A DNA stretch of 55,526 nucleotides from assembly GCA_002708695.1 (NCBI GenBank), contig PAOZ01000044.1, positions 1 to 55,526 on the forward strand. The letters are read 5' to 3'. Positions 41,185 through 55,526 of the stretch are shown here, in pieces (the stretch's first letter is position 1; the number at the start of each line of letters is the position of its first letter). Position numbers and translations under genes: made by a program. Under the pieces are notes generated by a model, which saw nothing but the letters and a program-made list of their open reading frames with translations, did not search any database and had not been told where the DNA came from. Source of the DNA: Methanobacteriota archaeon (GTDB lineage: Archaea; Thermoplasmatota; Poseidoniia; Poseidoniales; Thalassarchaeaceae).

Positions 41185-44100
41185 TCATCGCATTTCATCT
41201 TCTTTTTGCATGTCTTCTACAACAAGATAAGTTTGATTTTCAGGCATAGCTTCCATTGAAGATAGCTGTTGTTTCCTTGCTTCAAACATATCATCGAGTT
41301 CTACCCTAAGTCTTTCCAATCGGATTCCTTGATGTGGGCCTATTAGTCTCAGCATTAGGGCATATTCACTATCTAATGCAATTTCTTCTAATTCATCACG
41401 TGATGTGGCATTTCGAAGTCTTTGTTCAAATCGAGAAGTTCTTTTATTTCGAGTAAGGAATCCAAATGCAATCCAAATGAACAAAGGAATTCCCCCCATC
41501 ATTCCAATCAAATCCCATGCTCCAAGTCCAACTGTTGTACCAGGTACTACGATTTCAAATGGTTCAACTGGCATACTTAATGCATCTCGGGAATCAGTTC
41601 TTTCTCGGTCCTCAACTGCATCAGACCATCCATCTCCATCATCATCAGTATCTTCGTTATCTCCCAATCCGTCTCCATCGAAATCAAAACATTCTGTAGG
41701 ATCTTCAGGAAATACATCTGGATTCAATCCCTCATCCATACAACCATCAGCATCAAGATCACCAGGACTTGCAAATTTCGGAAGAATGTCGATGGCATCT
41801 ATGAATCCATCATTATCAAAATCAAACAGATGAAGGTCAGGTTCTGTTCCAGATTGGTTATCTCCTAATCCGTCTCCATCAGCGTCTTCCCATTGAGTAG
41901 GATTATCTGGAAACAAATCAGCTAATCTACCGCCTAGGTTATCGCCCCACCCGTCGCCGTCTCTATCGGAATGTTGGGTTGCATCTGTAGGGAATTTATC
42001 GGGATTAAATCCTGTTTGATTATCTCCAAAACCATCTCCATCTATATCTGACCATTGACTCGAATCATTTGGGAACTTATCTGCTCCACTTCCTGTAGGA
42101 TTATCTCCAAATCCATCTCCATCAGAATCTAATTGTTGTGATGGGTCAAATGGGAAGTCATCTGCGTTATTTCCTATACCATCTCTATCAGAATCTTCCC
42201 ATTCATTGGGGTCATTCGGGAATTCATCTCCTCTTTCTCCAAATGGGTTGTCCCCAAACCCATCTCCATCTGAATCTGAGTATTGAGATTCTTCATTAGG
42301 AAATACATCATCCTCGTCTGCAACTCCGTCTTTATCGGAGTCCTTCCATCTGGTGGGATCGTCGGGGAACTGGTCGCCTTCTGAACCAAATGGATTATCT
42401 CCATGCCCATCGCCATCTCTATCTGAATTTTGAGTTGGATCAAGGTCGAATGCATCAGCATTATCTCCTACTCCATCAAAATCGAGGTCACTCCATTCTG
42501 AATTATTGTTCGGAAAAGGGTCACGAATATCTGGCCTTGTATCTCCGTCGGAGTCCACACATCCCTTTTCGTAAGCATAACTCGAATTGCCTGCCTCTCG
42601 TGGGCACAAGTCTTCGTAGTCTTCGAATCCATCACTATCATCATCAAGATCCTCCAGAGCATCCATGCAACCATCAGAATCGAGATCGTTTGTTGAGTTT
42701 GAAATCCAACCGGTTAAACCCTTTGAACATGAATCTCCATAATCCTCCATGCCATCGTTATCATCATCTGAATCTTCAGAAGAATCCTCACAACCATCGC
42801 CATCATGATCGAACAAAGTAATAGATTGGAAACCAAGAGGAGAGAAACGACAATCGTCTAAAATATCTAAGACAAAGTCATTGTCAGTATCATCGTCATT
42901 GATGTCAGGGATTCCATCTCTGTCATAATCGGAAGATAGTTTAGTCAAGAATACATCAATGTTCCCAATACCCCCAGAAGATTCATCTCCAAATACTAAA
43001 TTTCCATTGGATTCTCCACCAACGTAGATATTTCCAGCACTATCATTTCCGATATGGGAACCTCGAGCACTATCGTAGCTTCCGCCTGAAAGACCCCATA
43101 CAGAAGATGTAGACTGGTTGAATTTCAGAAGAAATACATCACTTCCTCCGCCTGACGGATTGAGTGATACCGAACCCATGGAAAATGTTCCTTCAAATTC
43201 GCCAGTAACCAAAAATCCTCCATCCGAGGTTGCAAGAACATCATGTGCAATTGAACTGCTTCCAGAATCAATTTCTAGTGCATTCACCCAATATCCTGTT
43301 GAATTTAATTCGGCGACAAATCCATGTTGGGTACCTCCGGTACTGAGTGAAGAGCCCCCTAATTCCAGATATCCATAGAAATATCCTGCCGTGTAAACAC
43401 TTCCGTTTCCATCTACTGATATGCTCTTAATCGTTGAGCTACTGGTAGGAAATGATGCCGTAGAGAACCACTCATAAACACCATTTGAATCAATTTTAAG
43501 AGCAAACAATCGCGCTGTACCTGAATAATAATTCATATTTGTGCCATTGACATTGATTGAAAGAGAACCAGAAAAGTACCCTCCTAGGAATAGATTATCA
43601 GAATAATCCAACTCTAAATCTTCAATATGGAAATTGCCATTTGAGGGATAGAAAGTAAATTCAGTCTGAGTTAGGCCTGATTGATCAAAACTCAGGATTT
43701 TATTTCCATTAGAAACTAATAATTCACCATTTGATTTCAAGGCAATATTCGTTTCTGCGTTAGTAGGAGCATCCAACTTAGATGCCCATTCCCATACTCC
43801 ATTGGGTAATAATTTACCAATATATCCATCTACAACTGACAATGAGATATTATCGAAATAGTATGTTCCAGTTCCCGCAGCTGCATACAGATAGGTACTC
43901 TCATTCGAATCAACTTCAATTGAAATCTGTGAGTATGTACTCCCAGTTATTCTAGGTGTATGTTGATTTCCTGAAACTGTATTTATCCAGTCACATGTCC
44001 CATTCTTGTTTATTTTTGCAACGAATACTGCGTTCGCTGACGACCAATAATTTGGGGCCATGTACCCAGTACATGTATCAATCACAATTGATGACTTGAA

Positions 44101-44346
44101 AGACCCAGATATGATTACGTCTCCATCAGGGAGCACAACCATTTCTCCGATATTATCGTCATCAGATGACCCTCCAACCGTCAGCCATTCCCATGCTTTA
44201 CGATCTGTTGAGGATGAATCGTATCTGTGATCTAGTGATTTGAGTCCTCTCATTTCTTCATACTCAAAGGCAATAAGAGTAAACGATGCAAGCAAGAGAA
44301 TTAGAATCGAGAGCATTGCTCTGATACTCGCCCTTCGTCCTACCAT
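41185..44346 (-). CDS. Large surface protein: beta-propeller repeats plus long TSP3-like Ca-binding repeat stalk and TM anchor
   Basis: D..GN.Y.GG.F.G / DVFL.K blades, then many DSDGDGFGDN..G..D.FP.DP.QW units, then a C-terminal TM. Start placed at MVGRR to avoid overlap with the upstream gene. Confidence 0.85.
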   Translation of the reverse strand: MVGRRASIRAMLSILILLLASFTLIAFEYEEMRGLKSLDHRYDSSSTDRKAWEWLTVGGSSDDDNIGEMVVLPDGDVIISGSFKSSIVIDTCTGYMAPNYWSSANAVFVAKINKNGTCDWINTVSGNQHTPRITGSTYSQISIEVDSNESTYLYAAAGTGTYYFDNISLSVVDGYIGKLLPNGVWEWASKLDAPTNAETNIALKSNGELLVSNGNKILSFDQSGLTQTEFTFYPSNGNFHIEDLELDYSDNLFLGGYFSGSLSINVNGTNMNYYSGTARLFALKIDSNGVYEWFSTASFPTSSSTIKSISVDGNGSVYTAGYFYGYLELGGSSLSTGGTQHGFVAELNSTGYWVNALEIDSGSSSIAHDVLATSDGGFLVTGEFEGTFSMGSVSLNPSGGGSDVFLLKFNQSTSSVWGLSGGSYDSARGSHIGNDSAGNIYVGGESNGNLVFGDESSGGIGNIDVFLTKLSSDYDRDGIPDINDDDTDNDFVLDILDDCRFSPLGFQSITLFDHDGDGCEDSSEDSDDDNDGMEDYGDSCSKGLTGWISNSTNDLDSDGCMDALEDLDDDSDGFEDYEDLCPREAGNSSYAYEKGCVDSDGDTRPDIRDPFPNNNSEWSDLDFDGVGDNADAFDLDPTQNSDRDGDGHGDNPFGSEGDQFPDDPTRWKDSDKDGVADEDDVFPNEESQYSDSDGDGFGDNPFGERGDEFPNDPNEWEDSDRDGIGNNADDFPFDPSQQLDSDGDGFGDNPTGSGADKFPNDSSQWSDIDGDGFGDNQTGFNPDKFPTDATQHSDRDGDGWGDNLGGRLADLFPDNPTQWEDADGDGLGDNQSGTEPDLHLFDFDNDGFIDAIDILPKFASPGDLDADGCMDEGLNPDVFPEDPTECFDFDGDGLGDNEDTDDDGDGWSDAVEDRERTDSRDALSMPVEPFEIVVPGTTVGLGAWDLIGMMGGIPLFIWIAFGFLTRNKRTSRFEQRLRNATSRDELEEIALDSEYALMLRLIGPHQGIRLERLRVELDDMFEARKQQLSSMEAMPENQTYLVVEDMQKEDEMR
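41600..42930 (-). repeat. Coding array of degenerate TSP3-like DxDGDG repeats
   Basis: Many DxDxDG(x)GDN units in the translation. Boundaries approximate. Confidence 0.75.
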
Positions 44347-44383
44347 GTGTGGAGAGGGAGGCAGTATAGAAATGAAGGATTCG

Positions 44384-45244
44384 CTACTGGTTTTTCTCAA
44401 TACAATAGGGGCAATGTTTCTCAATCACATAATCTTCTGATTTTTGTTCCTCTACTGAAAGTGGATTTCGACATTCAAAACATAGTACATGGTCACTTTC
44501 TTCTAATTCTGGAGTGATGGACACTCGTTTATCGAATACGAAGCAATCTCCATTCCAATGTGCTCCGCCACATTCTTTGAAGTAACCAAGAATTCCTCCT
44601 TTGATTTGGTATACATTTTCCCACCCTTGATTTTCCATCACCACACTCGCCTTTTCACATCGGATACCGCCTGTACAAAACATTACTACAGGTGTTGATT
44701 TGTCTTGTTCTAATTTCTGAGTAGATTCCGGAAATTCACGAAATGATTTGATGTCGAGATCAATGGCGTTTTCGAAAGTACCAACTCGTAATTCGTAGTC
44801 GTTACGCGTGTCTAACACCATCACTTCTTTTCCTTCGTCTAACCATTTCTTGAATTCTTGAGGTTCAATGTATTGTCCTGTACGTTCTGCGGGCCTAATT
44901 TCATCCATACCCAATGAGATAATCTCATTCTTTAGACGAACAAGCATTCGCTTGAATGGCTGGTATTCAGAGTAGGAGATATGTAGTGGAATACCTTGTA
45001 AACGCTCGTCTTTTTCTAAATATGTTACATACTGGTCTATTGATTTCTGTGTGCCAGCTAGAAAGAAATTGATTCCATTATGGCTGAGTAACACCGTTCC
45101 TTTTAGTCCAAGTTCTAGGCAGTGTTCTAGCAATGGTGCCCTTAATGCATCTCTATCAGGAAGATCGATGAATCGATATCCTGCGATATTGACATAAGTT
45201 TCCGTGTCGAGCATACTCGATGCAGATACACTCTCCGCTACCAT
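44384..45244 (-). CDS. trhO: Rhodanese-domain protein of the TrhO/YceA (UPF0176) family, putative O2-dependent tRNA U34 hydroxylase
   Basis: YRF, LKGTVLL..GIN, F.RM.VRLK.EII, LDTRNDYE..VGTF, FCTGGIRCEKA, GGILGY, G.CFVFDKRV, C..C...CPYC. Confidence 0.82.
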   Translation of the reverse strand: MVAESVSASSMLDTETYVNIAGYRFIDLPDRDALRAPLLEHCLELGLKGTVLLSHNGINFFLAGTQKSIDQYVTYLEKDERLQGIPLHISYSEYQPFKRMLVRLKNEIISLGMDEIRPAERTGQYIEPQEFKKWLDEGKEVMVLDTRNDYELRVGTFENAIDLDIKSFREFPESTQKLEQDKSTPVVMFCTGGIRCEKASVVMENQGWENVYQIKGGILGYFKECGGAHWNGDCFVFDKRVSITPELEESDHVLCFECRNPLSVEEQKSEDYVIEKHCPYCIEKNQ

Positions 45245-45747: not shown

Positions 45748-46338
45748 ATGATGGCAGCAATGCAACGCTTCCGTCTTTTTTCGATTTTGTTGTTAATTCC
45801 AAGTATGCTTTTGCCTGTATATCTAAACGGTCCACGATATCTATACCTATATGCGACTCAGTGGTCAATCGAATTAGCAACATTTGCATTGTTAATCGGA
45901 TATTTACATGAACGATATCCTAAATGGAATTTAGAAAAGATTGCCAGTGCATCTCTTGGAGCCGCAATATATCTTGCATTGGGTACAATGGTAGGTTTTT
46001 GGGTTGCCTTTGCTAGAGTTTATTTTCCCTTAATAAGCACATATTGGATTGTTGCACTTACTTGGAGCCACATTATTCCACAAGTGATTTTGTTAATCAA
46101 TTTACGATTTTCTAATATTCAAATAAGATTATGGCACGGTTTTCTTGGAGCGATTATTGCTACAATTTACTTGCTAATCGATTGGTATAGAGTGGTCATA
46201 AATGACTTGCCTACAACATACGAATTTTTGAGTTGGGAAGCAAGTGATTCTTTTATCAAATCCTCATTTTTCGTTTTGGGTTCGATACTCGTTTACATCC
46301 TTGTAATGAGGGTAAATTTACGGTTTCCAGCTAGGTAA
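45748..46338 (+). CDS. Hypothetical multi-pass membrane protein
   Basis: About six TM helices with Y.TQWS, H..P and Y.FL.W motifs reminiscent of the FAR-17a/AIG1-like family (tentative). Confidence 0.65.
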   Translation: MMAAMQRFRLFSILLLIPSMLLPVYLNGPRYLYLYATQWSIELATFALLIGYLHERYPKWNLEKIASASLGAAIYLALGTMVGFWVAFARVYFPLISTYWIVALTWSHIIPQVILLINLRFSNIQIRLWHGFLGAIIATIYLLIDWYRVVINDLPTTYEFLSWEASDSFIKSSFFVLGSILVYILVMRVNLRFPAR

Positions 46339-48171
46339 GTTTTCATTTTCTTGTAATCGTAGAATACTCGTTCCGGGAATACACTTGACTTGTTTCCTTC
46401 TCGCAAACTCGCCAGGTTCAGCGTTAATGATTGCGATTATATCTCCTCTATTCACTCCATTTGATGTCTCAGGAACATTCATTTTGAATCCGATTACATT
46501 GATTACGCCCGTATGGTCAATCATTGTGATAGACCATCTATCTGAATATCGGCCATCTGGTAAAGTTCCCTTTTGGGATTCTACTGACCAAACTCTGCCT
46601 ACAACGTTAACCCTCGGGTGTATCTCGATAATTTCGATATCTGTTGGAAGTGTTCCTTCTGATAGTTCAATACTTGCATATTGGTCAATTGAAATCTCTG
46701 TTTTACCTCTCCATAGACTTGGTAATCCTCCACGAACTCTGACTTTAACTCCCTTGCGAAGAGATCTAGTTACATTTTTTGGGGCTGTATTCCAAGCATT
46801 TTTTACAGTGACATTATCTAGACCCTGTCTAAGTTCGAATTCAAAAATCACGCCACCATCTTGTAATTTCGGCTCTCGTGGCATTGAGAAAATTTCTCCT
46901 TCTAGATCTACTCGTGTTACTATGTCATTGACGGGAGTTAAGAGTAATTCTCGACCTTTGATTTGAACGGTCTTGTTATCGGGAAGTAGTGCGTCATGGC
47001 CTCCATTCGGACATAATGCCACATATGGACACGTTTTGCAACGTTCAGTAACAACTTCTGATTTTCCTACGAGAATACCTCCTTCTTCAAAATAGTAAAT
47101 TGGACTTGGATTTGGAGGGGCATCATCTTCAGATTTCACGTCTGTTAGAATTTTGTACATTTCTTCCATTTCTTTACTAATTTTGATCAATTCATTTTCA
47201 TCAGGAGCGTCCACTATTTTTCTTCGCCCTGGTCCCAAATACCAGATTTCAAGCCCATCAACAATTATTTCTCTAGAATGCGTTTCCCACCATAGCCATG
47301 AATAAAGTCTCAATTGTTCAGAATACAATCTTGATCGGTCATTATTTCCCATAGATGCTTTAAGATCAATAATCCTAATTTTCCCATCCCATCGATATAC
47401 TAAGTCATATTCTCCCTGAAACCATTGCTCTGGATGAATTGTTTGCATCGAGAAAGGGCGAGCATCTGGATCAACAAACCATGGCCTTGCTATAGCCCAA
47501 GATTCGCTCCAAGTTATCGAACCTGTACTAGCTTCAGGAGGCACATGTGTTCCCGAATTTGAGAATCCATCAGGAGCAGGAAATTCACCTCTATCTCCCC
47601 CCTTTCTCCAATTCTTTAGAGCATCATTGGTAAGATTCGAATGACAATTTGCCACTTCTTCCAAGTGAAGATCTATTCCGCGATGAGCCATTTCAATGAT
47701 TTCATTACGATCTAAGTTTTCTGCCCCTCCAATTCTATGAGGGCTAATTAACCAGTTCATTAGTGCTTCATCAGTACACCTTTCCACGTGTGCGTCTATT
47801 CTTGAATGAGCCCATTTTGCTAACTCATCTAGGTCTTTAGGCTGGTTTTTTTCAGAAATTACATCGAGTGTTGGTCCTAACCAACCTTCTTCACTATCCA
47901 CTAAATCTCCATGTTCGTTTAATGGCGAGACTAGAACCCTATCTGGTGAATCGACATGAATTAATGCTGGTGTTTCTCTCAAGACCCTTGATACACATGA
48001 TTCAACTGCATTTCCCCTAACAATTGCAGAGGGCAACGGCTCTTTGATCTTGAGATGATATTGCATCCAGTATTGACGCGGACAACTGTCCCATGCTCCT
48101 ATTTTTGATGCGGAAAGCCGATCCCAACCTTGGACCACAACGTCCTCGGGCGCTAGTATAGTAACCGGCAT
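46318..48171 (-). CDS. PD-(D/E)XK (Cas4/AddB-like) nuclease fused to two OB folds, paralog B
   Basis: LSASKI..WDSCPRQY, GEYDLV, IIDLKAS, QLRLY, CKTCPYVALC; C-terminal OB-like segments (RVNVVGRV...MIDHTGVINV). Confidence 0.82.
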   Translation of the reverse strand: MPVTILAPEDVVVQGWDRLSASKIGAWDSCPRQYWMQYHLKIKEPLPSAIVRGNAVESCVSRVLRETPALIHVDSPDRVLVSPLNEHGDLVDSEEGWLGPTLDVISEKNQPKDLDELAKWAHSRIDAHVERCTDEALMNWLISPHRIGGAENLDRNEIIEMAHRGIDLHLEEVANCHSNLTNDALKNWRKGGDRGEFPAPDGFSNSGTHVPPEASTGSITWSESWAIARPWFVDPDARPFSMQTIHPEQWFQGEYDLVYRWDGKIRIIDLKASMGNNDRSRLYSEQLRLYSWLWWETHSREIIVDGLEIWYLGPGRRKIVDAPDENELIKISKEMEEMYKILTDVKSEDDAPPNPSPIYYFEEGGILVGKSEVVTERCKTCPYVALCPNGGHDALLPDNKTVQIKGRELLLTPVNDIVTRVDLEGEIFSMPREPKLQDGGVIFEFELRQGLDNVTVKNAWNTAPKNVTRSLRKGVKVRVRGGLPSLWRGKTEISIDQYASIELSEGTLPTDIEIIEIHPRVNVVGRVWSVESQKGTLPDGRYSDRWSITMIDHTGVINVIGFKMNVPETSNGVNRGDIIAIINAEPGEFARRKQVKCIPGTSILRLQENENLPSWKP

Positions 48172-48201
48172 AGTATCGATTTTGGCTGGGGGGTATTGAA
48201 C

Positions 48202-49962
48202 TCAACTATTATTTTCAATCAATTCTAGAATAGTTTGTTTGTTAATTTGAATTTGAGGAGTCCCTTCTCTCCATCCCAATTCTCCATGATGTACAATCAA
48301 TTTATCTCCAATGTTGAGGGATTCAAAGGCCCTAGAACGATTCGAACCAAAAGCGGCAATTTCGATTACACCAGTTCCATCCCAAAGGTGAATTGAACGA
48401 ATTGTCCAGGGGCGACCGTTATTGGATATACCCTGATTTTTACCCATGGACACAACTTGACCCGAAACACTCGCTCTTGTGGGAATTAATCCTAATCTCG
48501 TCCAATTTTCATTATCGTGATAATTTACCAATTTGGTTTTACTATCTAGGAAAAGATGAGGAGTTCCTCTGAAAATACCCGGATTGGCATTGATAATTCC
48601 TATTTCTCCAATCCAATTTTCAGGATTTACTACTCCCTCTTCAGTTTCTTCAATTGTAATCCTAGTGTTTCCAGCTTTGAGAGTAGCAACTCTGACTAAT
48701 TCTCCGTATGAATTCTCCATATCGTGCCAAATATTATCTATAGAACCTCTTACTGAGAGCCTAGAAGGTAAATTATTTATGGTAATTACATTTTCTGGAA
48801 TTTCGAATTCCATGGGTGGAAGGAATTGTCTTGTAGCCCTATTTTTCGGATCGGTTGAATATCCACAAACTTCGAGTCCCTTACAATGTGGACAATGTAA
48901 CGGATGCCCTTCTGGCGTTCCATTATTAGATAACCAACTCCAATCTTGTTCTTGCACTTTTTCCATTTCGTCTCTTATTGCCATTAGACGCAACTTTTCT
49001 GAATCCATCTCCGATTCAGAAAGGATTGGAATTTCATGAATATGTCCGTCTAGCAGAAACCACCCTGCCAATGAGTCAACTTGTTGTTCATCGGGAGAAC
49101 GAGTTTGATTCCACAGCCAATGGTAGAAATTGACTTGAACTTCTAAGTTAGGTTGTGGTTTTCCTTTACCCATGCCTGATTTAATGTCAACAATTGTAGC
49201 ATTTTCTCTCCACCTGTGGACTAAATCCATTTCTCCTGATGCCCAACCTTCTGGGTGATGAATACGTTGTGCTGAAGAGATTCTTGGATCTTTCATCCAT
49301 GGTCTAGAAATTTCCCATGCTTCCCACCATGAAATTTCCTCTCCATGCTCAAGAAATCCCAGTGAAGATTTTTCTCCTGGTGCGGATTTCCATCTGGGTG
49401 CAACTGTTTCAAACGGATCACCATTTTTTCTAAATTTTTCAAGATGTGGCCCACCTCCTGATTCAAGACATTTTGAAGCTTCAGAAATTTGCATTTCTAA
49501 TGCTGCTCCGATTTGTTTTTGAATTGTCTCAATTTCAATATCTTCTGCGCTTTTACCTTTCATTTTCCAAGAGGTTTTTTCCCACTCAATCAAAAAATTA
49601 CTGTATACGTTTTCCGCTAGTGCTGGAATTAGTGAAGATAACCATTTTTGTATTCCTTCTAAAGAATCTATTTTTTCTGTTTCAACTTCATCATGGTTTT
49701 GATTTTCTTGGTATTTCAAGAATGAAGCAACACCATGTGGCAATGATCCATCATTTGGGGGGCTTTCCATTAGTAAACCAACTACTGCATCTTCAAGCAA
49801 AATGCCAAGAATCATGCTTGGTCTAACTGCTCCTCTCAAGCCTATTTTTCTTTTCACCATCCATGATCTTGGACATCTTTGCCAATTCACTAATGAACTT
49901 CCACTAAGCCTATTTCTTTTTCTTCTTCCAGCACCGCCAAATGGAGGGTTATTTACTGGCAT
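48202..49962 (-). CDS. PD-(D/E)XK (Cas4/AddB-like) nuclease fused to two OB folds, paralog A
   Basis: LSGSSL..WQRCPRSW, GEMDLV, IVDIKSG, QVNFY, CPHCKGLEVC; OB-like RASVSGQV...LWDGTGVIEI. GAGGTGA RBS overlapping the ABCE1 stop region. Confidence 0.82.
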   Translation of the reverse strand: MPVNNPPFGGAGRRKRNRLSGSSLVNWQRCPRSWMVKRKIGLRGAVRPSMILGILLEDAVVGLLMESPPNDGSLPHGVASFLKYQENQNHDEVETEKIDSLEGIQKWLSSLIPALAENVYSNFLIEWEKTSWKMKGKSAEDIEIETIQKQIGAALEMQISEASKCLESGGGPHLEKFRKNGDPFETVAPRWKSAPGEKSSLGFLEHGEEISWWEAWEISRPWMKDPRISSAQRIHHPEGWASGEMDLVHRWRENATIVDIKSGMGKGKPQPNLEVQVNFYHWLWNQTRSPDEQQVDSLAGWFLLDGHIHEIPILSESEMDSEKLRLMAIRDEMEKVQEQDWSWLSNNGTPEGHPLHCPHCKGLEVCGYSTDPKNRATRQFLPPMEFEIPENVITINNLPSRLSVRGSIDNIWHDMENSYGELVRVATLKAGNTRITIEETEEGVVNPENWIGEIGIINANPGIFRGTPHLFLDSKTKLVNYHDNENWTRLGLIPTRASVSGQVVSMGKNQGISNNGRPWTIRSIHLWDGTGVIEIAAFGSNRSRAFESLNIGDKLIVHHGELGWREGTPQIQINKQTILELIENNS

Positions 49963-49972
49963 CTTTTCACCT

Positions 49973-51739
49973 CTATGATGAATAAAAATATTCTCCAGAT
50001 GACTTTTGTTCTCGATCTTTCCTACTATCTGGTTTGTTGATTCTAGGTCTCTTAGAATCTTGGTCTCTTCTGAATGTAATTCCTACATTCTTCAGGAATC
50101 GATTCATCCCATTTCTTAGATGGAGTGGGCCGATTGCCTTTCCATTTACTCCACCTTCTCCTTCAAAGACTAGAAGTGAATCACTAACAATGTCGATGAA
50201 GTAAATATCATGATCTATTACCATTGCAGCTTTTTCTTTCGATACCATTGTTCTTCGAATAGCCTTTGCTGCTTCCATTCTAGCATTTGCATCTAAATGG
50301 GCAGATGGTTCATCTAGGAGGTAAATATCTGCATCTTTTCCCAAACAGAGAACAATCCATACGGCTTGTAATTCCCCGCCCGATAATTTTCTTGCTTGAA
50401 GTTCAAGGAGTTGATGTACATTTAATGGCCTTACAACCTTTGTTTGAAATTCTCCTGAGTGCCATGCTCTTCCTAATTCAGTATCTAACCATTCGCGTAC
50501 TGTTCCATCGAAATTTGCTTTAACGTGTTGTGGTTTGTATGAAACTTTAGCATCCATTGTAGTCCATCCACTGTCTGCTTCAATTTCTCCAGCCAACATT
50601 TTCACCATGGTTGTTTTACCAGTTGCATTTGGTCCAACAACTCCAACAACTTCTGCAGAATGAACGGTACCATCTTCGGTATTTAGAGTGAATTCTCCTA
50701 GATTTTTCACTAAGTCTCCCCATTTAAGAATAGGATCTCCAATTTCTTCTGAACGAATTCTACCTGTATGGAAGTTAATTGGTTTGTCTCTAATTCTCAT
50801 ATTTTGTTCAACAAGGTGCCCATCTAAGTAGGCGTTTATTGCAACCCTAGTTGCTCTTGAGGGAGTAAATATTCCATAACCTGCTCTTTCCCCATATACA
50901 ATGTGGACTTGGTCGCACAGAACGTCTAGAATTGCTAGATCGTGTTCAACAACAAGCACCCTTCGACCCATTTCTGCTAAGGATTGAATGATTTTAGTCA
51001 CTCTCATTCTTTCATGAATATCAAGGTAAGAAGTTGCTTCATCAAAGAAATACACATCCGCTTCTTTGAGTAAAGTTGCACATATCGCCACACGTTGTAG
51101 TTCTCCACCTGATAAATCACCAAGTTTACGATCCATAAGGTGAGTAATTCCCATTTCATTGGCCCATTTTTCTACTTCGTTGCGTTCATCTACTCTTTCC
51201 AAAAGTTCGCTAACAATTCCATCGAAAATCTTTGGTAGTTTGTCAACATACTGTGGTTTTACTGCAACTTTAACTCCTGATTCGGCTACTTTTTCTAGAT
51301 AATCTCTTAGTTCTCCTTTGGGATAATTTTCGATAATTTCATCCCATTCCTTTTCCTCTCTCCAATCTCCAAGATTTGGTTTGAGAGCTCCTGAAAGAAT
51401 CTGGACAGCGGTTGATTTTCCCATTCCATTTTGTCCAAGAATTCCAATAACTGCTTCTTCTCTAGGGGTAGGTAATCGAAAAACTCTGAAACCATTCTCT
51501 CCAAAACAATGAGTTAAATCCGTATCGAGTTCTTGGGGGATATTGATCAAAATTACAGCATCTCCAGGGCAATGTTTTGCTCTGTTAAGGCAGACTGGAC
51601 AAGCCGTCTCTAGAATCTTACATTTTTTGTCTACCACTTGAATACATTCGCTACCACACATTCCTGCATATTTTTGTAAATAAGCGAAAGCAGGCATGTT
51701 TGGAGCACACCTGTCTTCAAGTAAAACTGCAACCCGCAT
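49973..51739 (-). CDS. rli: Ribosome recycling ATPase ABCE1 (RLI)
   Basis: Two NBDs (GQNGMGKST/LSGGELQ/FFDE and GPNATGKTT/LSGGELQ/LLDEP), VKPQY, C-terminal ITFRRD...RPRINK.DS..DREQK..GEYFY. Confidence 0.96.
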   Translation of the reverse strand: MRVAVLLEDRCAPNMPAFAYLQKYAGMCGSECIQVVDKKCKILETACPVCLNRAKHCPGDAVILINIPQELDTDLTHCFGENGFRVFRLPTPREEAVIGILGQNGMGKSTAVQILSGALKPNLGDWREEKEWDEIIENYPKGELRDYLEKVAESGVKVAVKPQYVDKLPKIFDGIVSELLERVDERNEVEKWANEMGITHLMDRKLGDLSGGELQRVAICATLLKEADVYFFDEATSYLDIHERMRVTKIIQSLAEMGRRVLVVEHDLAILDVLCDQVHIVYGERAGYGIFTPSRATRVAINAYLDGHLVEQNMRIRDKPINFHTGRIRSEEIGDPILKWGDLVKNLGEFTLNTEDGTVHSAEVVGVVGPNATGKTTMVKMLAGEIEADSGWTTMDAKVSYKPQHVKANFDGTVREWLDTELGRAWHSGEFQTKVVRPLNVHQLLELQARKLSGGELQAVWIVLCLGKDADIYLLDEPSAHLDANARMEAAKAIRRTMVSKEKAAMVIDHDIYFIDIVSDSLLVFEGEGGVNGKAIGPLHLRNGMNRFLKNVGITFRRDQDSKRPRINKPDSRKDREQKSSGEYFYSS

Positions 51740-51798: not shown

Positions 51799-53037
51799 TC
51801 AAAAGAATGTTAAGAATCTATGGCGGATGTATAGACTCAAAGCGAGTGTGATTTTCTCTGCTTTATTTAATCGGATTCGTTCAGAGAAAACATCACCTTC
51901 AACTCGATTTATCTTTTTTAGAATAGAACGATATAGCCCCATCATAATCGCTGGACTATACCTCATTTTTGGTTTTAGCATTGGAAGTAATCCCAATGCT
52001 CTGTCCCTATATACCTCAATTCTTTCAATAAATTCTTTGACAAATGGATTCCATCCAGGATGGTCTTTTAGTTTTCCTTCAAGAACATCTTCAGGTTTAA
52101 TTCCATGTCTCGCTAAGTCATCTATCGGAAGATATATTCTTCCACGATCAGCATCTTCTTGTACATCTCTCAATATGTTTACCAATTGCATGAAAACTCC
52201 CCAAGCTTCTGCATGCTCGCGTGCGGCTGCATCTTCATATCCATATATCTCAATACAAACTAGACCAACTGTAGATGCAACCCTGTAACAGTATTTGTAT
52301 AAATCTTCAAAAGTTTCGTATCTATCTCTGAAGAAATCGTCTTCCATTCCAGTGATTAAATCGTCCATATGTATCTTTGGAATTCCGAATCTTTGAACTG
52401 TATCTTTTAGTGCTAAGAATATAGGATCTGTGGAGGCAAGATCATTATACGCAGTTGACAATTTCTTCCTAAAGAAGTATAGTTGAGCCATCTTATCCAT
52501 GAAACTATGTCTATCTACCACAGGGACTCGTTGAATCATCTCTTCTAGTCTGGCGATGTATTCTTTTGCTTCTGGATCTTCAGCTCCATCAGAGCCAGGA
52601 AATAAGTCTCTGTAATCTCCATCAGCAATATCATCCGCTCTTCTGCAAAATGCATAATATGCGCACATTGCTCTTCGCTGTTCGTCAGGGAGATATTTGA
52701 AGGAATGGTAAAAGTTTGCTGCTTCTCGAATTGTGAGCGCTTCACAGTAGTCATAGGAAGTGTTGACAATAAATGGAGGAATTTCCTTTTCGGACCAGAC
52801 TGGGGCATCTATACTATCAAATGGATTGGATAGCACTTCTCCAGATTTTGTAACTCCCATAAATTTGGCAGATGCACGTAGAGCATCAAATGCAGTAACA
52901 CTTACTGCACGGACTGCTTCAGAGGTAAGTTCAACTGCTGATCTTAATGAGCGTATGCCTTGCTCATCTCGATTTTCATTTTCTAGAGGGGCTTCAATAG
53001 TGGTCTTTGATGCCACCTGACGTACCGTCTCGCCCAT
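51799..53037 (-). CDS. Phytoene/presqualene-diphosphate synthase (CrtB/HpnD-like) with N-terminal extension
   Basis: NFYHSF..LP..RRAM..YYAFCRRADDIAD, YCYRVASTVG, MQLVNILRDVQED..RGRIYLP. Confidence 0.88.
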   Translation of the reverse strand: MGETVRQVASKTTIEAPLENENRDEQGIRSLRSAVELTSEAVRAVSVTAFDALRASAKFMGVTKSGEVLSNPFDSIDAPVWSEKEIPPFIVNTSYDYCEALTIREAANFYHSFKYLPDEQRRAMCAYYAFCRRADDIADGDYRDLFPGSDGAEDPEAKEYIARLEEMIQRVPVVDRHSFMDKMAQLYFFRKKLSTAYNDLASTDPIFLALKDTVQRFGIPKIHMDDLITGMEDDFFRDRYETFEDLYKYCYRVASTVGLVCIEIYGYEDAAAREHAEAWGVFMQLVNILRDVQEDADRGRIYLPIDDLARHGIKPEDVLEGKLKDHPGWNPFVKEFIERIEVYRDRALGLLPMLKPKMRYSPAIMMGLYRSILKKINRVEGDVFSERIRLNKAEKITLALSLYIRHRFLTFF

Positions 53038-53116: not shown

Positions 53117-54127
53117 CTATTTTTTCCGATTTTTTTTCAGTAGACGGCGTGTTCCACCAGGGGTAATTGAACCAATAATTGCAGAAGTCATTAATCTCTT
53201 GACAGTTTTTCTTGGAACTTTAACTGGTTCATTTGAATCAAGAACATTGTTCGTGCGAAGTAGATTTACAGTTTGTTGACCAATTAGGATTGGTAATAGA
53301 CATGCAATTTTTAGTCTTATTTGTCGTTTTGGCAACATCAGAATGTATTGTTCAGCGGCATCGATATGTCCTTGCGTAATATCAAGTAGAGATTGATATA
53401 CGGGTGAAAATTTTTCATAATTAGATGCATCAAGTAATTGGCTAGGCTCTAGATTCACATCTTCTAATAGTGGTTTGGGGATGTAGCATCGTCCGAATGA
53501 TAGATCCTCTGGGATGTCTCTCAGGATATTTATCATCTGTAGGGCTTTTCCAAATCTAATGCCATGTTCAAACATTATTTCACTGGTGGGTCCATCAACA
53601 GATACAATATGGGCTAAAGTCATGGTGGTCCAAAATTCCCCAACACAACCAGCAACACGATATGCATAATCATCCAATTCTTTTTCATTTTCTAAGGAAG
53701 AAATTTTATCAGAATCATTTGCTGGGCCAAATCTTTGGAGATCTAGAGTTTGTCCACTGATTATTATTTTAAGACAGCGACGCATATGTATTCTATCATT
53801 TTCGGAAATTGAATTGAATGCATTAAGTGGTATGTCGACATTCTCGAGGAGTTCTTTTTCAGAGGGGTTTGTTTGTAAAGAAGAAAGGTGCGACAAATCG
53901 CCCATTTCTTCGCCATCGTGACTGGTTACTCTGTCCCAAGCCTCCAATGCACTAAGAAGTAAATCCACTTCTCCAGTTTTTGAATCTGCAATTGTGTCTG
54001 CTACTCTAGCTAGCAGATATAGAAGGCCAACTTGTTTTCGAATAGACTTGGGTAGAACTTTTAGGGTAAGGAAGAACGACCGTGAAGTCTGTTCTAACAG
54101 AGTATCAGCAGATGAGTCAATCAGCAT
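53117..54127 (-). CDS. Squalene-synthase-like head-to-head prenyltransferase
   Basis: TSRSF, YLLARVADTIAD, YAYRVAGCVGEFWT, FGKALQMINILRDIPED..GRCYIP. Confidence 0.85.
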   Translation of the reverse strand: MLIDSSADTLLEQTSRSFFLTLKVLPKSIRKQVGLLYLLARVADTIADSKTGEVDLLLSALEAWDRVTSHDGEEMGDLSHLSSLQTNPSEKELLENVDIPLNAFNSISENDRIHMRRCLKIIISGQTLDLQRFGPANDSDKISSLENEKELDDYAYRVAGCVGEFWTTMTLAHIVSVDGPTSEIMFEHGIRFGKALQMINILRDIPEDLSFGRCYIPKPLLEDVNLEPSQLLDASNYEKFSPVYQSLLDITQGHIDAAEQYILMLPKRQIRLKIACLLPILIGQQTVNLLRTNNVLDSNEPVKVPRKTVKRLMTSAIIGSITPGGTRRLLKKNRKK

Positions 54128-54254: not shown

Positions 54255-55526
54255 ATGCAGTGCGGAACTTGTGGCGAGGAGATTCCTAGCGATTCCCTAT
54301 TTTGTCCAGAGTGTGGGGCTCGTCAGAACGCTAGCGGCGGAGACATGCAAACTCCTCCTGCCCCTGTTCCTGAACCAGTTAGTGAAACCCCAATGGACCC
54401 ATCCGCATTTCAACAAACTGTCAATGCTCAAGGAATGATGGGTCAAGGACAAATTCAGCCCAACCAAATAGATCCTCAAAGGGGTGCCCAGAATTTCCTA
54501 TCGTCTCTTGCAGCAGATATGACTGGCCAACCATCTCCTTCTCCTCAACCTGACCCTTCACGTTCAGCACAGGATTTGGTTGTAGATGCTATGGCTGAAG
54601 CAGATAGGGAGAAAAAGGCGAATGCTCGTTCTGCTTGGCTTTCGATGAATCAACAAAGCGCTTCTGATTTACTTAATGCCGTTGGTGCTGTTCAAGGCGC
54701 TCCTAACATTGATCGTTCTTCTACTTCATTAGATGAAGTAGAGCCATTCAATCCACCTCCACAAAATCGTGTATCTTCTTCTACAAATTTACCCTCAGAC
54801 ACACTAGTAAGGAGGATGGTAGAGGTAGCTGTTCGTCGAGTTGGTAGGAAGAGAGGAGTAGGTGTTGAAACTCCTCAAGTAAAGGCAGAAGGGTCTGTTA
54901 TTAGAGTAAATGTAACCTACATTGATGATGGCCGTGTTTTGGATAATCCTCCAGAACTTCATGGGGCGTTTGAACATGCAATTGATACTGAAATCCGTCT
55001 AAAGGGGTACGATGTAGATTTACTACTTGCGTTATTCCGTAGTAAGGATGGTGAAATTTCCTTTTCTTGGGGAGAGGAGCCAGATACTGCTGCTGTTGAA
55101 GATGATGAAGAAATATTCGAATGCGGAGCTTGTGGAGGATTAGTTCGCGATAGTGACCCCTCTTGTCCAACTTGCGGTGCTGAATTCCTTGATGAAGATG
55201 AAGAAGAGCCTGAGCCAGAACCATCTCCTAGAGGGGGCCCATCCGGAGGCCCTAGGGGTCCTAGCCGAGGCGGCCCACCTGGGGGCCCCAAGGGTCCCAG
55301 CCGAGGAGGTCCATCTGGAGGAGGCCCTAGAGGTCCTAGCCGAGGAGGTCCATCTGGAGGAGGCCCCAAGGGTCCTAGCCGAGGAGGTCCACCTGGAGGC
55401 CCTAAGGGTCCTAGTCGAGGCGGTCCACCTGGAGGCCCTAAGGGTCCTAGTCGAGGCGGTCCACCTGGGGGCCCTAAGGGTCCTAGTCGAGGCGGTCCAC
55501 CTGGGGGCCCTAAGGGTCCTAGTAGA
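54255..55526 (+). CDS. Double zinc-ribbon protein with long RGG/Pro-rich repeat tail (runs off the window end)
   Basis: Not in the ORF track because there is no stop. MQCGTCGEEIPSDSLFCPECGARQ..., later FECGACGG...CPTCGAEF, an acidic patch, then repeats; 424 open codons to the edge. Confidence 0.85.
   Translation, partial: MQCGTCGEEIPSDSLFCPECGARQNASGGDMQTPPAPVPEPVSETPMDPSAFQQTVNAQGMMGQGQIQPNQIDPQRGAQNFLSSLAADMTGQPSPSPQPDPSRSAQDLVVDAMAEADREKKANARSAWLSMNQQSASDLLNAVGAVQGAPNIDRSSTSLDEVEPFNPPPQNRVSSSTNLPSDTLVRRMVEVAVRRVGRKRGVGVETPQVKAEGSVIRVNVTYIDDGRVLDNPPELHGAFEHAIDTEIRLKGYDVDLLLALFRSKDGEISFSWGEEPDTAAVEDDEEIFECGACGGLVRDSDPSCPTCGAEFLDEDEEEPEPEPSPRGGPSGGPRGPSRGGPPGGPKGPSRGGPSGGGPRGPSRGGPSGGGPKGPSRGGPPGGPKGPSRGGPPGGPKGPSRGGPPGGPKGPSRGGPPGGPKGPSR
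55230..55526 (+). repeat. GC-rich coding tandem repeat, 8 units of 36/39 bp encoding RGGP(P/S)GG(G)P(K/R)GPS
   Basis: Units read directly from the sequence; the last four are nearly identical at DNA level. Confidence 0.92.

Follow-up and report, generated by a model that had tools for sequence, protein, structure and literature searches.

The window analysed here is a stretch of 55,526 nucleotides (nt) from contig PAOZ01000044.1 of a Poseidoniales archaeon of the family Thalassarchaeaceae (assembly GCA_002708695.1), and our subject is a pair of adjacent genes on its minus strand, A and B, each of which is predicted to encode a RecB-type nuclease domain followed by two OB folds. Gene A, the upstream paralogue, spans positions 48202..49962 and encodes 586 amino acids (aa), while gene B, the downstream paralogue and the type kept in every Poseidoniales lineage, spans positions 46318..48171 and encodes 617 aa. 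The two open reading frames (ORFs) are separated by 30 nt and lie exactly where a preliminary description of this DNA had placed them. That description had claimed two co-oriented paralogues of about 600 aa with the same architecture, which the comparison bears out: the proteins are 25% identical across their full lengths (BLASTP, E = 7e-37), a similarity far above chance that marks them, at the level of sequence, as full-length paralogues.

The translation of A contains the motifs ISWWEAWEISRPWMKDP and HPEGWASGEMDLVHRW and that of B the motifs ITWSESWAIARPWFVDP and HPEQWFQGEYDLVYRW, and both also carry an N-terminal CPR as well as CxxCx5C, GE(M/Y)D, D(I/L)K and QxxxY. The N-terminus reads MPV in the majority of A-type and of B-type proteins. 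In searches against Pfam, the scores for PDDEXK_1 (PF12705) were 34.8 bits for A (E = 2.2e-8) and 59.8 bits for B (E = 5.1e-16), and both proteins are thereby members of this family, for which the cut-off is 22 bits. One tRNA_anti-codon OB fold (PF01336) was found in each protein, with scores of 26.9 bits in A (E = 4.5e-6) and 26.7 bits in B (E = 5.4e-6), which is about at the cut-off of 27 bits. The NCBIfam matches, to Cas4 and to replication factor A, were all below threshold. No helicase family was detected by Pfam or NCBIfam in A or B, nor in the neighbours that were scanned, in agreement with the preliminary description.

The window's own assembly, which is 70% complete, contains only these two copies of the family. 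Homologues numbered 480 for B (at E <= 1e-3) and 41 for A, and members of the family appear in databases as "hypothetical" or "PD-(D/E)XK nuclease family protein". A promoter and terminator scan around A and B, using a sigma-70-type model that is ill-suited to archaea, returned no more signals than expected from shuffled sequences.

Nuclease domain

In A, the nuclease domain covers residues 1-385 (48808..49962, minus strand) and includes the CPR cysteine, G53 and E57, a helical insert, RPW..DP, GEMD, DIK, QxxxY and CxxCx5C. The corresponding domain of B (residues 1-400; 46972..48171, minus strand) contains C30, E57, D256, D269, K271, Q286, Y290 and C378/C381/C387, together with a helical insert at about residues 66-230 in which W140 is invariant and C176 near-invariant.

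We counted the conservation of these residues, using the B numbering, in 77 sequences consisting of 35 A proteins, 35 B proteins and 7 proteins from genomes with a single copy of the family. E57, D256, D269, K271, Q286 and Y290 were invariant (77/77) in all three groups, and the PD-(D/E)XK catalytic set (an acidic residue in the first helix, D, (D/E)xK and QxxxY) is complete in the family. The RecB-type active site proposed in the preliminary description was thus recovered together with every motif quoted for it. Equally invariant (77/77) are R229-P230-W231 and D234, which constitute a signature of the family.

The preliminary description had also noted one N-terminal and three C-terminal cysteines of the iron-sulphur (Fe-S) type, and both proteins in the window do carry the CPR cysteine and CxxCx5C. 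All four positions (C30, C378, C381 and C387) were occupied in 35/35 B proteins and 7/7 single-copy proteins. Among the A-type proteins C30 was retained in 29/35, C378 and C381 in 32/35 and C387 in 21/35; the set was complete in 18/35 and all four were missing in 3/35. C176 in the helical insert of B, which is not a canonical Fe-S ligand, is kept in 76 of the 77 sequences.

For structural comparisons we modelled residues 1-385 of A with AlphaFold2, which gave a predicted local distance difference test (pLDDT) score of 88.5 and a predicted template modelling (pTM) score of 0.88. The best Foldseek match to this model was Dna2 (5eax; E = 4.3e-4, 346 columns), followed by ACE1 (9iac; E = 6.9e-4), AdnAB (7sjr, 7sjr_A; E = 9.1e-4) and AddB (4cej, 4cej_B; E = 3.7e-3), with Cas4 and MGME1 next. 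Seven matches had E <= 1e-3. Since the query-normalised template modelling (TM) scores were only 0.30-0.38, the kinship of the modelled domain to Dna2, ACE1, AdnAB and AddB is clear but distant. A match of the family profile to the Cas4 structure 4r5q (E = 0.0024) ran through the N-terminal motif.

The best structural relatives, namely Dna2, ACE1, AdnAB, AddB, Cas4 and MGME1, are nucleases acting on single-stranded DNA (ssDNA) or ssDNA ends. Dna2 is a nuclease that depends on ssDNA ends and has its polarity set by RPA (PMC4716839), and ACE1 is an ssDNA endonuclease that shares homology with nuclease domains found in bacterial repair complexes (PMC12094033).

C-terminal OB folds

The full-length B protein was modelled with AlphaFold2 from 44 aligned rows of A-type and B-type proteins, resulting in a pLDDT of 86.7 and a pTM of 0.83. 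Two beta-barrel domains follow the nuclease domain in this model, at about residues 401-503 and 521-607. The first (OB fold 1, residues 401-503; 46663..46971, minus strand) was delimited from the beta strands of the model and from Foldseek matches to tandem OB folds, and the second (OB fold 2, residues 521-607; 46351..46611, minus strand) coincides with the PF01336 match at residues 521-595 and with a profile match to 8aa9. In A, the boundaries of OB fold 1 (about residues 385-482; 48517..48810, minus strand) were transferred from B through the A/B alignment, while OB fold 2 (about residues 497-582; 48217..48474, minus strand) contains PF01336 at residues 516-577 and a weak NCBIfam match to replication factor A at residues 498-559.

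The top matches of the B model in the PDB were to the DBD-A/B domains of RPA70 (4gop, 1jmc, 1fgu and 9pd4). Further tandem-OB matches were to Teb1 AB, POT1 and HIN-200, and the E-values of the whole set ranged from 1.5e-9 to about 1e-6. The family profile matched the replication factor A structure 8aa9 through OB fold 2 (E = 1.7e-6); the match of OB fold 1 of B to crenarchaeal single-stranded DNA-binding protein (SSB) structures was weak (E = 0.07-0.09). By the 8aa9 profile match and the Foldseek matches to RPA70 DBD-A/B, these domains belong with the RPA-type OB folds, and the C-terminal half is modelled as a rigidly packed, RPA70-like tandem of two such folds. The two RPA-like OB folds that the preliminary description had assigned to each protein are therefore seen in the B model and, in A, through the alignment (OB fold 1) and PF01336 (OB fold 2).

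Distribution of the family

We searched a sample of 151 genomes of the Poseidoniales (hereafter the order) with the A and B queries separately, and the family was found in 148 of them with either query. It was present in all 58 high-quality genomes and in 22/22 genera of the order, and the three genomes without a match were 83-88% complete. In a sample of 301 genomes from the phylum, matches were obtained in 62/63 genomes of the order, plus the window's own genome, and in 0/8 genomes of the sister family in the same class. Outside the order this sample yielded only four weak partial matches to B (E = 4e-5 to 6e-4), of which three proved, once fetched, to be the RPA genes of those genomes. The A/B family is specific to the Poseidoniales within the phylum sample and near-universal in that order.

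When 1.84 billion representative proteins were searched with a profile, 750 matches had E <= 1e-3, including 65 with E <= 1e-30; about 30 were full-length (550-670 aa) and most of the others were fragments. No relative of A or B was among the 48 pattern matches in viral contigs, and no longer or fused forms of the family were found. A 1175-aa frame that joined A to B (G130:C13:4247-7774; locus L084, 1247-4774) was rejected, there being a 100-N assembly gap between the two genes.

Four rare, GC-rich relatives (P0227, P0237, P0246 and P0286) are 402-477 aa long and have the same nuclease signature, with a shorter insert and a single OB-like domain at the C-terminus. One locus of this kind (L077, 82-1362) lies on a metagenome contig of 3.6 kb, the neighbouring genes of which are uninformative. 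A scan of genome contigs for these short one-OB relatives returned loci from Poseidoniales only, and in the phylum sample they did not turn up outside the order, where just seven weak matches were obtained.

Gene order, phylogeny and selection

Situated 10 nt upstream of A is a gene for a twin-ABC ATPase (49973..51739, minus strand; Pfam ABC_tran in two stretches, E = 1e-36), which we call ABCE1 from its twin-ABC domain pattern. The order ABCE1-A-B on one strand was conserved in 17/17 paired loci (13/13 in a first set and 4/4 in a later set), and in most of the 13 paired loci examined for it the genes for PAC2 and eIF2-alpha converge downstream of A and B.

Only one gene of this kind, and a B-like one, is present in seven genera that belong to the window's own family and have genomes of 1.3-1.6 Mb. 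It has about 42% identity to B and about 28% to A at the same place. In 7/7 of these single-copy loci a radical-SAM gene is located directly upstream and ABCE1 is absent from the flanks. The conservation and synteny of the pair, which the preliminary description had put forward for a survey across relatives, thus hold for the loci with both genes and do not extend to these seven genera, where B stands alone.

A quick maximum-likelihood tree of 35 proteins was divided into A (14 rows) and B plus the single-copy proteins (21 rows), both sides having full (100%) support. The single-copy genes formed one clade (support 99) inside B, and its sister group (98) consists of B genes from two genera, one of them the window's own. 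This topology places the duplication before the radiation of the order and implies a single loss of A. In one clade, B is thus kept independently of A.

We calculated substitution frequencies between each gene and its orthologue from the same genus. For A the nonsynonymous (dN) and synonymous (dS) values were 0.147 and 1.15 and for B they were 0.119 and 1.38, corresponding to dN/dS ratios of about 0.13 and 0.09, respectively, which are rough values in that dS is near saturation for both genes. At the sequence level both genes appear to be under purifying selection and to be maintained with intact active sites. The remaining PDDEXK_1 genes of this genome were rejected as a source of A and B, being only distantly similar to them.

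Other DNA maintenance and defence genes in these genomes

We also examined which other genes for DNA maintenance and defence are encoded in the order. NurA was found in 0/5 and then in 0/64 genomes of the order, compared with 76/237 genomes elsewhere in the phylum. Since several other families of the phylum lack NurA and have no A/B genes, there is no one-to-one complementarity between NurA and A/B. Mre11 was found in 0/61 genomes of the order, both with a query from a Thermoplasmatota nurA-herA-mre11-rad50 operon and with the Mre11 family model, for which the control was positive in 13/14 reference genomes. The Rad50 model gave weak partial matches on SMC and ABC frames only, and the Rad50 zinc-hook model gave matches in 0/5 genomes, with a control that was positive in just 3/14. 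HerA-type DUF87 was present in 0/3 genomes of the window's family and in 2/2 genomes of the other large family.

RadA was present in 5/5 genomes of the order, and so was Fen1. A canonical RPA frame with multiple OB folds (565-600 aa) was identified in 60/61, besides small SSB-like genes. Among the partners raised in the preliminary description, RPA is thus encoded alongside A/B, and NurA and Mre11 were not found.

In all five genomes examined there was an AddAB-like pair: a first ORF with PDDEXK_1, about 1220-1280 aa long, and behind it a second of about 1620-1680 aa that combines a UvrD helicase with a C-terminal PDDEXK_1. In the window's own genome this pair is located outside the window (G000:C36:21737-30264; locus L088, 1737-10264) and encodes proteins of 1228 and 1616 aa in ORFs that overlap by 10 nt. 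A long UvrD-helicase ORF was present in 60/61 genomes of the order. With NurA and Mre11 not found, a bacterial resection set seems to have taken the place of the archaeal one here. DHH proteins occurred in 46/61 genomes, in a pattern that is not complementary to A/B. Those of about 470-500 aa, the size of RecJ/GAN, occurred only in the other large family (29/29), while the window's family has a form of about 330 aa only, or none (14/29).

With regard to defence, Cas1 was found in 0/5 genomes including the window's own (control positive in 7/14), Piwi was found in 0/5 genomes with a control that was positive in only 2/14, and no array-like CRISPR repeats were present in the window. These results accord with the earlier statement that the pair has no CRISPR context. 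PADLOC gave only weak, domain-level matches to Cas4 and DruK, the best with E = 5.5e-7.

Three substitutions were considered for A/B on this background. A replacement of RPA was rejected, given the canonical RPA in nearly all genomes. A replacement of the missing Mre11-Rad50/HerA-NurA resection machine was downgraded after the AddAB-like pair had been found, as A/B are then not required to account for end resection. There was no clean complementarity that would indicate a replacement of RecJ/GAN or Fen1, with DHH proteins in 46/61 and Fen1 in 5/5 genomes.

Comparison with characterised systems

A and B belong to the PDDEXK_1/RecB-like proteins and lack features that define Cas4, AddAB/AdnAB, Dna2 and RPA. 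Eukaryotic Dna2 (5eax/5ean), a RecB-type Fe-S nuclease that acts on ssDNA ends, is the best structural match to the nuclease domain of A; it is also functionally coupled to RPA-type OB folds (PMC4716839). Its active site lies inside a tunnel through which ssDNA is threaded, and the likeness seen here is one of overall fold. However, Dna2 has a helicase of superfamily 1B (SF1B) C-terminal to its nuclease and recruits RPA in trans, whereas A and B have no helicase and their C-terminal half consists of two RPA-like OB folds fused in cis.

The bacterial AddAB and AdnAB enzymes are similar in being encoded by paralogous two-gene sets, in their RecB-type nuclease domains and in the AddB-type arrangement of one plus three cysteines. 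In contrast to these, where each subunit has a superfamily 1 (SF1) motor or motor-like domain, A and B have no UvrD/SF1 motors, are about 600 aa rather than 1100-1600 aa in size and have OB folds instead, and the genomes of the order encode a separate AddAB-like pair elsewhere.

Cas4, solo Cas4 and ACE1 share the nuclease superfamily, the motifs and the cysteine pattern, with weak matches to TIGR00372 and 4r5q. The scores against the Cas4 equivalog TIGR00372 were 26.7 bits for B and 14.7 bits for A, to be compared with a cut-off of 65 bits, and linkage to cas1/cas2 or a CRISPR array was not observed. A and B differ from Cas4 in being three times its size and in containing two OB folds and a helical insert of roughly 150 aa, and no cas genes, arrays or Argonaute accompany them. 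The likeness to archaeal RPA and to RPA70 DBD-A/B is in the tandem OB folds of the C-terminal half, and differs in that no Pfam zinc ribbon and no third or fourth OB fold was matched in A or B; the best scores against the NCBIfam RPA/SSB equivalogs were 15.8-17.5 bits, where the cut-offs are 188-1147 bits. By analogy, the working of A and B would be closest to that of the nuclease half of Dna2 or AddB combined with RPA DBD-A/B in cis.

Literature searches on Cas4, OB folds, RPA, Dna2 and Marine Group II yielded no published description of a nuclease-OB architecture, which is in line with the earlier suggestion that this is not a characterised system. The term "OB-fold" does not occur in the main text of a phylogenomic study of Cas4, the supplements of which may list the family in the pfam12705 branches (PMC5704561). 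The architecture is conserved and uncharacterised, yet it is built from familiar parts with plausible familiar chemistry.

Proposed function and alternatives

We take A and B to be chromosomal, vertically inherited housekeeping genes, because the family is near-universal in the order, limited to two copies in the window's own genome, under purifying selection and syntenic as ABCE1-A-B, with no viral relatives and weak matches in PADLOC. The interpretation that we favour, to which we would give a probability of roughly 55%, is that they encode a motor-less, Fe-S-bearing nuclease that processes ssDNA ends in chromosome maintenance, with B as the core and A as an accessory paralogue.

Each protein would be a self-contained ssDNA nuclease. 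The N-terminal domain would act as a metal-dependent PD-(D/E)XK nuclease of the RecB/Cas4/Dna2 type, with a staple of one plus three cysteines around an Fe-S cluster in B, and is predicted to be rigidly joined to the RPA70-like OB tandem at the C-terminus. This tandem may capture a stretch of ssDNA and pass the free end to the active site of the nuclease, so that the enzyme would trim or degrade ssDNA tails, flaps and gaps with no motor of its own, the unwinding being done by other enzymes. The likelier polarity is a preference for 5' ends, as suggested by comparison with Dna2, Cas4 and AddB and by the order of the domains, in which the nuclease precedes the OB tandem. B would be able to work without A; A may be an ancient, catalytically intact accessory that pairs with B or takes a different substrate or polarity. 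The role would lie in replication-associated or recombinational DNA maintenance, beside the AddAB-like machine, RadA, RPA and Fen1 and replacing none of them.

Several observations weigh against this interpretation. The tight, conserved linkage to the gene for a ribosome-recycling ATPase is not explained by a role in DNA metabolism. Foldseek matched the nuclease domain at modest E-values (4e-4 to 4e-3, with TM 0.30-0.38), and it is from the presumed relatives that the choice of DNA over RNA as substrate, the polarity and the Fe-S cluster are taken. The Fe-S ligands are eroded in some A proteins, which suggests that A may act unlike B. Finally, no pathway appears vacant in these genomes (RPA and long UvrD in 60/61, RadA and Fen1 in 5/5), and the specific job of A and B is unassigned for this reason.

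The preliminary description had envisaged a heterodimeric nuclease acting in end resection, repair, defence or the processing of incoming DNA. In its strict form, A and B would be an obligate, pseudo-symmetric heterodimer, similar to AddAB or AdnAB without the motors, that serves as the cell's enzyme for the resection of double-strand break ends and handles one strand per subunit. The two genes are indeed ancient, co-oriented paralogues that are always adjacent where both occur (17/17 loci), all catalytic residues are kept in both, the fold is like that of the AdnAB and AddB nuclease domains, and neither NurA nor Mre11 was found in the order, with Rad50 represented by weak partial matches only. 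However, the conserved pair is not an obligatory one, since seven genera carry B alone after a single loss of A, and no A-B fusion gene was found while many A proteins lack Fe-S ligands. The resection role is weakened in addition by the long UvrD ORF in 60/61 genomes and the true AddAB-like pair in the five examined, and we consider this explanation unlikely. A related and bolder conjecture combines both proteins into a motor-less, pseudo-symmetric chimera of Dna2 and RPA with two nucleases and four OB folds, which would process both ssDNA polarities at forks and breaks, would have arisen upon the loss of Mre11-Rad50 and NurA and taken over part of the lost resection, and would have its expression wired to the gene for the ribosome-recycling ATPase. 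If true, such a machine would tie the processing of DNA ends to the growth state, and would add a new, lineage-specific class to the genome-maintenance enzymes of archaea, in one of the most abundant archaeal groups of the ocean, but we regard it as rather improbable.

Similarly doubtful is a role as a defence or foreign-DNA nuclease of the solo-Cas4 or ACE1 kind that degrades viral or incoming ssDNA or makes guides. It would agree with the similarity to the Cas4 family and with the high structural rank of ACE1, a Cas4-family ssDNA endonuclease that is associated with Argonaute. Solo Cas4 genes are often encountered away from CRISPR loci (PMC5704561). Against this, Cas1 and Piwi were each found in 0/5 genomes (the latter with the low control rate given above), the PADLOC matches were weak, and the family, rather than being confined to patchy, variable islands, is inherited vertically by nearly the whole order, beside constant housekeeping neighbours and with no viral copies. 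Very unlikely, in our view, is an RNA-directed nuclease that cooperates with the ribosome-recycling ATPase, for example in the decay of mRNA on stalled ribosomes, with OB folds that bind RNA. The placement of ABCE1, A and B on one strand with gaps of 10 and 30 nt in the window, an order kept in 17/17 loci across the families of the order, the conserved eIF2-alpha neighbour and the match of the OB folds to the generic PF01336 would all suit such a function. Yet the close structural relatives of the nuclease domain all act on DNA, the OB tandem matches binders of ssDNA or double-stranded DNA and replication factor A, and the gene of the single-copy clade is located behind a radical-SAM gene with no linkage to ABCE1 (7/7 loci).

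The lineage is uncultured and ranks with the most abundant planktonic archaea. Whichever role A and B have, the genome-maintenance toolkit of the order looks unlike that of textbook archaea, with a bacterial-type AddAB-like pair and an order-specific nuclease-OB family, with Mre11 and NurA not found and with weak partial matches only for Rad50. A nuclease with an RPA-like tandem of its own would offer a small natural system in which to study how nuclease polarity is directed by OB folds; eukaryotes accomplish this with Dna2 and with RPA supplied in trans. Likewise, the split between paired and single-copy genomes inside one family is a natural experiment on what the second paralogue contributes.

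Other features of the window

Upstream of the ABC ATPase gene, two genes for squalene/phytoene-synthase paralogues adjoin each other (51799-53037 and 53117-54127, minus strand; PF00494, E = 2e-71 and 1e-48), and this arrangement is syntenic in several related loci. They are followed by an ORF on the plus strand (54255..55526) that encodes N-terminal zinc ribbons and contains, at positions 55209-55502, seven in-frame units of 36-39 nt that are rich in Gly and Pro codons; this is a coding repeat and not a CRISPR array. On the other side of A and B, a gene on the minus strand (41185-44424) encodes a protein of 1079 aa that contains numerous Asp-rich repeats resembling DxDxDG and has a hydrophobic stretch at its C-terminus. 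Direct DNA repeats at positions 42020-42277 fall inside this gene, the product of which is, from these sequence features, likely a surface protein.

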